Under the pieces are notes generated by a model. That model did not search any database. It saw only the letters and a list, made by a program, of their open reading frames with translations, and had not been told where the DNA came from. Both the position numbers and the translations under genes were made by a program. DNA of 64,000 bases from Lingula anatina (taxonomy: Eukaryota > Animalia > Brachiopoda), in assembly GCA_051362555.1 (NCBI GenBank), contig CM120640.1, positions 24,662,225-24,726,224 of the forward strand, in the 5' to 3' direction. The stretch's first letter is position 1. The number at the start of each line of letters is the position of its first letter. Shown piece by piece: positions 47,901 through 50,900 of this stretch.

Positions 47901-50900
47901 AGGGTGATATTTGTGAATAATTTTGCCTTTGGGCCTTCAGTAGATCATCAGGTAGGGCTTTTATATTTTTCATTTCTCAGAAAAGCTTTTTAGTGATTTG
48001 TCAGTAATATGATGGAATTTTAGATGCTTGGGTTATTCATCTTCAAGGCAAAACCCCATTGTTTTGCACAAAAAGCAGTGTTTAGCAGAAATTAATGTAA
48101 TACTTTCAATCTTGTAAGTGTCAAGATAGAAAATTATTAAATAAGAAGGTGGTTAAAAATGATCTCAATACAAAAATTGAGAAGTGATATAGACGGCCAC
48201 ACAAGTGAAAATAAGAACTTGATTTGTTCAATTTTCCAGCTTAAACTACGTTTTGCCAACATGAAAGAAGGTGCTAAAATTGTTTCGTCCAAAGCCTTTT
48301 GTCCCCTAAACTTCAGGATAACAGATAGAAATCTAGGTGGTGAGTACTGATCATATGGAGAGTTTTAATGGATTTGAAGCAATCTTGTACAGTATTTGTT
48401 GTAAGTCATTCTTTGGTTATAAGAGACAAATTTTATATGTAATGTATGTAAATGATGTGTGGACTATGGGCCTATGAAGTGTGTGGCCTTACAGGTACCA
48501 TTGGTGCTATCACATATCTAGACCACAATACAACCTTTTGGGCAAGTTATTATATTGGGAACTCAGAGGAGAACATTGGGATGTATCAACATTTAGCATT
48601 GATATTTTTCAATGACTTTCTTATATTTGCAATTTCATTCTTTTGTATATAAATCATTTCTCAGTATGATGTGATGTCATGTTAGAATTCATATATTTAT
48701 AGTTTTTGTGTTACTCCTGCCAGTTCATAATATGAAATGTGATTTGAACCATGAAATCACCCCAAACTAGAGTAGGCTCTCTTATGTGCTTTTGCATCTT
48801 TTTGCTTGAAATTAAACAGCCTGTTTGCATACACAGACAATAAGATATTTATAATTATTATTTACCACATAGCATAACTTGATTTGTTGATATCTTTTAA
48901 GTGGCATTCTGTGTTTATTTATGTGGCTTTAAAATTCATGCTGCAATCGTGTGTCACCTTGCTATGAAGAGTAAAAAGTAAAATAAGTTACAATGATAGA
49001 CCTTGTAAGCAATTTGGTGAAACACTACTGTGTTGTAAAATTTGAGCATGATCCACGAATTTGAATAGTTTGATAAGCATTATTTTCAAAATATGACCTG
49101 CTTAGCCTCCTTGTTGTAATTTATCACCTTGTAGGCCCTGTGCTTCGAGTTGCGAACCCTCCCTGCACACATACCCTCTGTTATGAAGCGTTATTACCAG
49201 CAAGCCACCGTTGTCTTTGTATCAGTTGTTGCTAATGTACCATGTTGTGGCTGTGTATTTCTTACAGACATTGGCAGCATAATGCATGTTACAGAGCTGT
49301 CTCCTTTGCGTGGTGCTGTCTCATGGACTGGCAACCCAGTCACTTACTACCTCCATGAAATAGATCGAACTCTGGTGAGTAGGGATTGCACAGTTGATTG
49401 CACCCAGCTGCACTAGGGAATGATATGGAAAAATTAGACTGGCAAGGTGTTGTCTGGGCTGTGAAAGGAGAGCCACGTGGGGGAATACCCAGGAGAAAGA
49501 GCTTTTTAGGTCCTTGCTTTTGAGCAGCTTTTATATACGACTGCCCTGCAAAATTGATTTATATTGGTAAACTACTTCTCAGCTGTCTTTCCAGAACCAG
49601 AAGACAACTTACTGCCATCCTGAAATACAGCAAGAGAAAGAAAGCCACTAAATTTTCCATATGTTCTTAAGCTGCAGTTGGAGTTTTTTCGTTTGTTTTC
49701 TTTGCTTTGTTGACTCTGTTCTCACAACTTTCCAGATATTGGATCGATCATGCAAGTAGAGGAGCTCTCACCACTCAGTGGTGCCGTCTCATGGACCGGC
49801 AAAGCTTTCTCTTACTTCGTACATACTATTGATAGAACCTTGGTAAGTATGGGAGGGTTATGTATTGGAAGGGGCTGCACTACATCTATACCTGTTCTCC
49901 CATTCAAGACTTATGAAACCAGCACTATGCAACTGCCACATTGGTCTTTCTGCAGGCCTACTATATTTATCATATGGTTATCTAACATTCTGGTAGATTA
50001 TAGTCTGCTAAATGCTTGAAAGAGTTCACTGTGGTCCACTGTTTCTTTGTTATTGTGTATGATTCACTTCTATTGCCTTGTATAAATGCATTATCATTGA
50101 AAGGATTGGGGAGTGCAATAGTTTATGTTCTTTATATACAATTAGAGCTGATTAAAACCATTGAGAAAGACAAAGAATGATTTAAAGTAAAATAAGACAA
50201 TATTTGAACCTGAACCTCCAATTTTCCCTTAACACTGTTTGATGTACCCTGGTGCTGGTTTCATGTATTGTTGCTGGCAATGAAAATAAGTGGTGATAGT
50301 GCATCATAGTATACAGGGTCCCTATATATGTCTTGGAAGGCTTGATAATATAACACTGGAATTCTAATGAATACAGTACTGGATAGAAGTGGTCTTCTAG
50401 TAAATTGCCATACATTCATACTCACTGTTCTTTTGACAGAAATAAAGTTATTTTAAAGAGAGTTACATATGCAATAAAATGTATCTAAACAAAAAATTGG
50501 CAATTTACAAGGATTCACCTTTTATATAGATCACCAGTTTAATTCTCTTCTTGGCACAGTTAGTCTCTTTATTTTCATGTTTGTCAATTTATAACAAATA
50601 ATGTAGTGTGAAAACAGTTCAACAAATGCATGACAAATAGGGAGAGAAATATTCAATACAGCGGCATGTATTTAACCTAAAGTTTGTGATATCTGACCTT
50701 CATGGTCTAGGGTAGGCTAATGTGACCATTCTCTCATTGTGCATGGTAGTTTACACATTTGGTGTTGGTTAAATTAGAGTATAAAGTAATGAAGGAAAAA
50801 TTTTTAGAAATGTTGATCTTTAAAAAATTGTGAGCATTATTTTTTTATGATAGTTAGTTTTTATGATATATGGAAAAGACTTAGTTGATTTTGAGTAGAA

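Follow-up and report, generated by a model that had tools for sequence, protein, structure and literature searches.

The DOT1L gene and its tandem exons

The window analysed here, a 64,000-nucleotide stretch of Lingula anatina contig CM120640.1, contains a gene for the histone methyltransferase DOT1L in which one exon of the catalytic domain occurs as two adjacent homologous copies, termed exon A and exon B (Table 1). DOT1L is normally encoded by one gene and has one catalytic domain. Among the proteins compared, the closest matches of the Lingula gene were molluscan (~50% over residues 3-700). The gene encodes a DOT1 catalytic domain with motif VIII (VSWT); the assignment agrees with Pfam domain PF08123 on its homologues and with a fold match.

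Table 1. Positions in the window of the DOT1L gene, the tandem exons and the putative elements around them
Feature	Position	Strand	Remarks
DOT1L (KMT4), histone H3K79 methyltransferase	38911..58868	+	Host gene; ~1,860 codons, lophotrochozoan-like
Shared upstream exon	48240..48339	+	Last base is base one of codon D286
Candidate docking element upstream of A	49131..49170	+	Can pair with either donor flank; found post hoc
Exon A	49268..49374	+	Minor form in L. anatina; keeps R300, V310 and L314 as in single-copy animals
Three GCAC motifs past A donor	49388..49413	+	Possible splicing-factor site
Predicted helix, 5′ arm	49402..49443	+	27 nt past A donor
Predicted helix, 3′ arm	49644..49684	+	51 nt before B acceptor
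Candidate B branch point TTGAC	49710..49714	+	From motif scan; ~56 nt from A donor with helix looped out
Exon B	49736..49842	+	Major form; S300, F310, V314; keeps K308
Shared downstream exon	50935..50979	+	Opens helix carrying L322 and F326 (ubiquitin-binding in human)

Exons A and B are each 107 nt long, are preceded by AG and followed by GT, and share the same phase; the coordinates and ends given in the initial annotation were verified. I290, W305 and Y312 are present in both copies; the initial annotation places Y312 in the lysine channel. Both exons encode the segment equivalent to human DOT1L residues 286-321, and exon A was matched to residues 287-321 of 1nw3_A.

The initial annotation predicted that inclusion of both exons or of neither would shift the reading frame, and a 25-exon gene model bore this out. 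With A alone or B alone, the model gave 1,861 open codons and a stop at 58866. With A and B together a stop occurred at 49757, inside B, and with neither exon a stop occurred at 50937, in the first codon of the next exon. The exons of this model before 46797 and after 52465 are based mostly on AG/GT ends and frame rather than on listed splice joints.

The two copies are alike at 73 of 107 nucleotides and 25 of 35 residues, and 14 of the 25 unchanged residues have different codons. Divergence between them was pN 0.20 and pS 0.66 (dN 0.23, dS ~1.6). With pN well under pS, these values agree with the earlier view that many differences are synonymous and that both copies are under purifying selection. 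They also bear on the possibility that the pair is a product of misassembly or of recent duplication in place. The tandem similarity alone favours such an origin; however, only 73 of 107 nucleotides are alike, silent sites are near saturation, reads cover the intervening intron, and A followed by B was found in five independent contigs. An artefactual or recent origin is thus refuted.

Two observations concern the surroundings of the gene. A gene at 62626-63879 on the minus strand lies tail to tail with DOT1L. Its last exons were matched at 64-91% to the C-terminal part of a Saccostrea model, a fusion of DOT1L with a protein annotated as cysteine-rich protein 2-binding protein-like, for which KAT14 is another name (PMC12153100). 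This DOT1L neighbourhood may be common to oysters and the present genome. On the other side, an ATG followed by a GT donor at ~38370-38592 on the minus strand, ~320 nt from the DOT1L start codon, suggests a gene head to head with DOT1L.

Splice joints in L. anatina RNA

Splice joints were collected from 8 of the 9 listed RNA runs bearing this species label, with 6-30% of each run used and joints listed at a minimum of 3 reads per run. Exon B was joined on both sides in all 8 runs, with 60 reads for joint 48339>49736 and 113 reads for joint 49842>50935. Joint 49374>50935, which connects A to the next exon and skips B, was represented by 6 reads with 5 different starts, all from run X2. Exon B had 33 reads to the next exon in that run, so A accounted for ~15%. 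The count for 49374>50935 was zero in X3, X5 and X9; X1, X4, X7 and X8 did not list this joint, and counts below 3 reads per run would go unseen there. The joint leading into A, 48339>49268, was listed in none of the 8 runs at the floor of 3 reads per run. It could have been missed, since only ~4 entry reads would be expected from 6 exit reads at the entry-to-exit ratio of B (21:33). The unseen entry joint nevertheless counts against full use of A in this species.

Neither an A>B joint nor a joint skipping both exons was listed in the 8 runs at the same floor, although products of this kind could escape notice through decay. In several runs, the introns upstream of B were covered at low depth, which fits slow splicing there. 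The A>next reads may represent few molecules or partly spliced RNA.

A tissue- or stage-specific choice between A and B was considered and set aside; the comparison of X2 (A in 6 of 39 reads) with X1 (no A listed, 33 B reads) is too thin. Runs X7-X9 showed many fixed differences from the window and small length changes at the exon starts 51452-51468 and 52355-52360, as from a distinct population or a close species.

The same data raise the possibility that exon A is a nearly silent leftover in L. anatina, its rare use reflecting noise or an intermediate still unspliced upstream. This would account for the unlisted 48339>49268 joint, for the presence of the A>next joint in only 1 of 8 runs and for the low depth upstream of B. 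We consider it very unlikely. Exon A is intact, with consensus ends, 91% protein identity to a nemertean A copy and pN far below pS; its share in X2 was ~15% (6 vs 33 reads), and the annotation of 13 species includes full-length A isoforms.

The junction counts thus fit the one-of-two splicing expected in the initial annotation: B has joints on both sides, A has one downstream that bypasses B, no joint combining the two is listed, and isoform pairs of relatives differ solely in this segment. Either-or splicing of A and B is, in our judgement, almost certainly real. The pattern that would have spoken against it, namely a single exon in all transcripts and a second one absent or degraded in related species, was not observed.

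The exon pair in other animals

Exon A, a Mya protein and a Haliotis protein served as queries in the search for relatives, complemented by cluster look-ups of 10 proteins each. Thirteen mollusc and nemertean species had RefSeq models of both forms (Mya, Mercenaria, Ruditapes, Dreissena, Pecten, two Mytilus, three Haliotis, Gigantopelta, Lineus and Tubulanus). In the annotated isoforms of these species, each exon is joined to both shared neighbours. Ten isoform pairs of equal length differed by 7-15 residues, all within the segment; the two Mytilus pairs, which come from different assemblies, also differed outside it. The annelid Owenia had an A model and a B-like model, both spliced onto the same next exon. 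Both forms are thus present in gene models of three phyla. The sole model seen in Capitella was B-type. For Littorina, Babylonia, Biomphalaria, Bradybaena/Candidula, Patella, Saccostrea and one more cluster, all listed models were of the B form, owing perhaps to loss or to incomplete annotation. In six outgroup clusters (urchin, acorn worm, sea star, crayfish, moth and beetle), every listed isoform had one segment.

Among 62 metagenome contigs, 5 held A followed by B, 55 held one copy, and 2 were partial or unrelated. The conserved tandem arrangement that the initial annotation proposed to look for was recovered both as genomic order, in these 5 contigs, and as paired forms, in the 13 species and Owenia. 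The A-then-B order was also present in one Pinctada model and two read-through ORFs. In one of the latter (P0381), the A copy was one codon longer and diverged (I310) beside an intact B, and it is possibly relaxed or decaying. Of the single-copy contigs, 33 that are mutually near relatives had an A-like exon only, and in 25 of them the next exon was in view without an intervening B. Copy loss looks tolerated. This A-only lineage (L008, L010, L021, L023, L025-L051, L053, L054) has C at position 300, otherwise typical of B. Insect-like contigs had a single exon with the same 107-nt ends. In four contigs (L012, L014, L024, L052), the intron before the exon was absent and the intron after it was kept.

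Comparison of both copies with five other loci gave pN 0.08-0.19 and pS 0.59-1.03, which demonstrates purifying selection on the encoded protein of each copy. All B copies fell on one side (support 91/80) of a tree built from 18 pairs and 12 outgroup segments; with 35 columns only, this tree is weak. The peptides of exon A in L. anatina and of the nemertean A copy are 91% identical. The copies thus group by position, which fits one old duplication. The simplest reading of these comparisons would be that the exon was duplicated once, early in lophotrochozoan evolution, that molluscs, nemerteans and probably annelids inherited the pair, and that copies were lost later.

Residues that distinguish A from B

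We compared the two exons at individual positions (human DOT1L numbering) in the 18 pairs and in 166 outgroup proteins. The outgroup had V310 in 166/166, L314 in 166/166 and K or R at position 300 in 162/166. The A copies largely kept these residues (V310 in 18/18, L314 in 16/18, R300 in 17/18). The B copies had F310 in 18/18, V or I at 314 in 17/18 and a non-basic residue at 300 in 17/18; K308 was present in 18/18 B copies and variable in A. Exceptions concerning F310 were the Owenia B-like copy, which has L310, and one arthropod-like protein (P0463), which has F310. Of the A/B differences listed in the initial annotation, the HE/HT contrast at position 316 did not hold, as E was found in only 2 of 18 A copies; the stable differences are those at 310, 300, 314 and 308. 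The number of differences from the commonest outgroup sequence was 9-14 for A and 8-16 for B. A scheme in which A is ancestral and B derived was rejected as a general description; it holds at 300, 310 and 314 only.

Several of these positions lie in or near parts of human DOT1L with assigned roles. Residues 301-312 form the substrate-binding loop (PMC6943651). W305 closes the lysine tunnel, and the W305A substitution abolishes activity; I290 contacts ubiquitin, and S304 lies near H18 of histone H4 (bioRxiv 10.1101/501098). The roles that the initial annotation gave to I290 and W305 therefore stand. Y312 is not mentioned in the text of that preprint; a review locates it in a hydrophobic pocket next to the cofactor site (PMC6943651). 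In simulations, K300 was one of the residues that contributed most to the stability of the H4 contact (PMC8671179). The human and yeast enzymes differ in product specificity; according to a 2024 paper, which called the basis unresolved, this difference may stem from the conformation of the motif VIII loop (PMC10951340).

Positions 310, 300 and 314 are in or beside this loop, which is tied to product specificity and H4 contact; for this reason, exchange of A for B likely retunes loop shape and histone contact. In the proposed sequence of effects, F310, V/I314 and loss of the basic residue at 300 in B would alter loop conformation and contact with the H4 tail, and the altered loop would affect how fast or how far H3K79 is methylated, not the contact with ubiquitin. 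Altered dependence on H2B ubiquitination, which the initial annotation also raised, is a weaker guess, given that I290 does not vary and that shared exons encode L284, L322 and F326. In an AlphaFold model of one B-type protein, confidence was low around the segment (block means 43-75), and the model yielded no contacts. Because the model is too uncertain in the loop, we make no structural claim on F310.

H3K79 is reported to be mainly unmodified in Capitella and monomethylated in Owenia (PMC12153100). The Capitella model is B-type and Owenia has both forms (P0347, P0009, P0018); with two species, this juxtaposition is a lead at most.

The two isoforms might instead be nearly equivalent in function, so that either-or splicing is real and the copies, having split the ancestral residues between them, persist without yielding different enzymes. 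The residues with tested roles (I290, S304 and W305) are indeed common to A and B. A keeps R300, V310 and L314, B keeps K308 and I317, both stand at a similar distance from the commonest outgroup sequence, and lineages with one visible copy occur in both directions. Against this, the contrast at 310, 314 and 300 has been held over three phyla at invariant or nearly invariant sites, with purifying selection on both copies. We regard near-equivalence as a serious but improbable alternative. A measurable enzymatic difference between the A and B isoforms is, in our judgement, somewhat more likely than not.

Our preferred reading is that DOT1L of L. anatina has two intact tandem exons for the substrate loop, both spliced into RNA, with B as the main form, that their one-at-a-time use probably gives rise to two enzyme versions, and that the loops of these versions are predicted to engage the nucleosome differently. 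We assign this reading as a whole a probability of roughly 0.7.

How A and B may exclude each other

The intron between A and B is short at several loci: 53 nt in L007, 81 nt in L004 and 144 nt in L001; two read-through ORFs have A-B introns of ~55 and ~208 nt. By comparison, L007 has 1,107 nt in its next intron, and other gaps between exon hits in L004 range from several hundred to >1,000 nt. In the window, the A-B intron is 361 nt long, and a predicted 37-pair helix within it leaves 78 nt. None of 100 shuffles, 16 other introns or 21 intron tiles reached this helix length. The 470-nt intron of L058 gave a 44-pair helix, reached in 0 of 50 shuffles. The 614-nt intron of L003 gave 31 pairs, reached in 4 of 50 shuffles, and had no clear spanning helix; the 144-nt intron of L001 had none. 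Folding of the whole region was unremarkable (z -0.76 for 49100-49900 and -1.61 for the A-B intron), and only the longest-helix measure stands out. Two read variants in the 3′ arm keep their pair, which is weak evidence, since 41 of 74 possible transitions would do so too.

In human clusters of mutually exclusive exons, a donor-to-branch-point distance of <50 nt is taken as a steric rule; 60% of the clusters have a frame-breaking exon length and 9% a short distance (PMC5740500, Hatje et al. 2017). The distance is necessarily <50 nt in L007, with its 53-nt intron, and is ~56 nt, above this limit, in the window if the candidate branch point is used and the helix is looped out. Given the short or helix-shortened A-B introns, their nearness to the <50 nt rule and the frame-breaking exon length, partial steric exclusion combined with decay of frameshifted leaks is favoured. 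Under this scheme, the A donor and the B branch point would clash sterically, such that A could not be joined to B; a long RNA helix would shorten the A-B intron where that intron is long; and nonsense-mediated decay would remove the frameshifted products that leak through. On these modelled distances and folds, we give the scheme slightly better than even odds.

A docking-type switch, comparable to Dscam-type clusters with a conserved docking site and competing pairings, is a conceivable but doubtful mechanism, acting instead of or besides the helix: the candidate element upstream of A could pair with either donor flank and thereby mask one donor at a time. Among 1,996 scanning windows, this element ranked first for the B flank and second for the A flank, compared with ranks of 19-1,782 for 20 other donors, and a similar site ~200 nt upstream of A in L001 was in the top five for both flanks. 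The element was found post hoc, however, its duplexes are interrupted, and both flanks are richer in GC than other donors. No such element was seen for both flanks in L003, L004 or L007, so that it recurs in 1 of 4 other loci, and the loci are too diverged for covariation analysis.

Two other candidate elements were rejected. The GCAC triple past the A donor is the only one within 30 nt on the plus strand of the window, but it is not shared by 4 other loci and was discarded as a conserved splicing-factor site. A 9-mer found after both donors (at +33 and +32) was absent from the 4 other loci, and stretches of at least 9 letters are common to both members of 7 of the 231 donor pairs within the gene.

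Comparison with known systems and significance

The pair has the hallmarks of mutually exclusive exons as surveyed by Hatje et al. (PMC5740500), that is, similar exons of equal length and phase whose length is not divisible by 3. The main text of that survey does not include DOT1L; the present pair differs in being from invertebrates and in encoding the substrate loop of a chromatin enzyme. For a two-exon cluster described in 2013, closeness of the exons and intronic RNA structure were proposed to enforce one-of-two choice, as here, judging from reference titles in PMC6071210 and PMC12962786. According to a citing paper, the evidence in that case was experimental, whereas the DOT1L helix is predicted and cannot be aligned between loci.

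Human DOT1L and yeast Dot1 (PDB 1nw3, 6nj9, 1u2z) share the fold and motifs of the lophotrochozoan protein, with I290, the VSWT motif and Y312 kept, and the model of a B-type snail protein matches the human DOT1L fold with E ~1e-42. In contrast to the deuterostome and arthropod clusters, which have one segment, the lophotrochozoan gene has two, one of them with F310.

Trypanosomes offer a functional parallel. DOT1A and DOT1B provide two DOT1 activities in one organism that differ in product (me2 vs me3) (PMC10951340). They are separate, diverged genes, however, and their proposed specificity residues are in motifs IV and VI, outside the exon studied here; any likeness in function is conjectural. 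Equating F246 of DOT1A with V310 was rejected, as F246 is in motif VI and has no effect on product specificity (PMC10951340).

The identical swap is present in automatic annotation as RefSeq isoform pairs (X1/X2 of Mya, Pecten, Lineus and Tubulanus), which carry no mutually-exclusive label and for which no discussion was found in the open-access literature. No description of the A/B pair in DOT1L was found among the open-access papers searched. An annelid chromatin survey names dot1l, without isoforms in its passages on the gene (PMC12153100). The initial annotation knew of no mutually exclusive exons at this position in DOT1L; as far as descriptions go, this agrees with our search, but the swap itself was already in public gene models. 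The DOT1L pair is real, old and, as far as searched, undescribed: a known device in an unexpected enzyme. The surprise is limited in that duplicated either-or exons are common and the swap was latent in those models.

Why some DOT1 enzymes halt at dimethylation and others proceed to trimethylation has been described as unresolved, and the present loop has been named as a candidate (PMC10951340). The swap alters residues that do not vary among the sampled vertebrates, echinoderms, hemichordates and arthropods. A natural pair of loops in an identical protein background, present in three phyla, would permit a direct test of the question of product specificity. A bolder reading, by analogy with trypanosomes, is that a lophotrochozoan splicing switch sets the H3K79 methylation state, the F310 and V310 loops giving different me1/me2/me3 output. 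We consider this unlikely as matters stand. If it were true, one gene would do what trypanosomes do with DOT1A and DOT1B, and a natural exchange of a single loop would address what fixes DOT1 product specificity.
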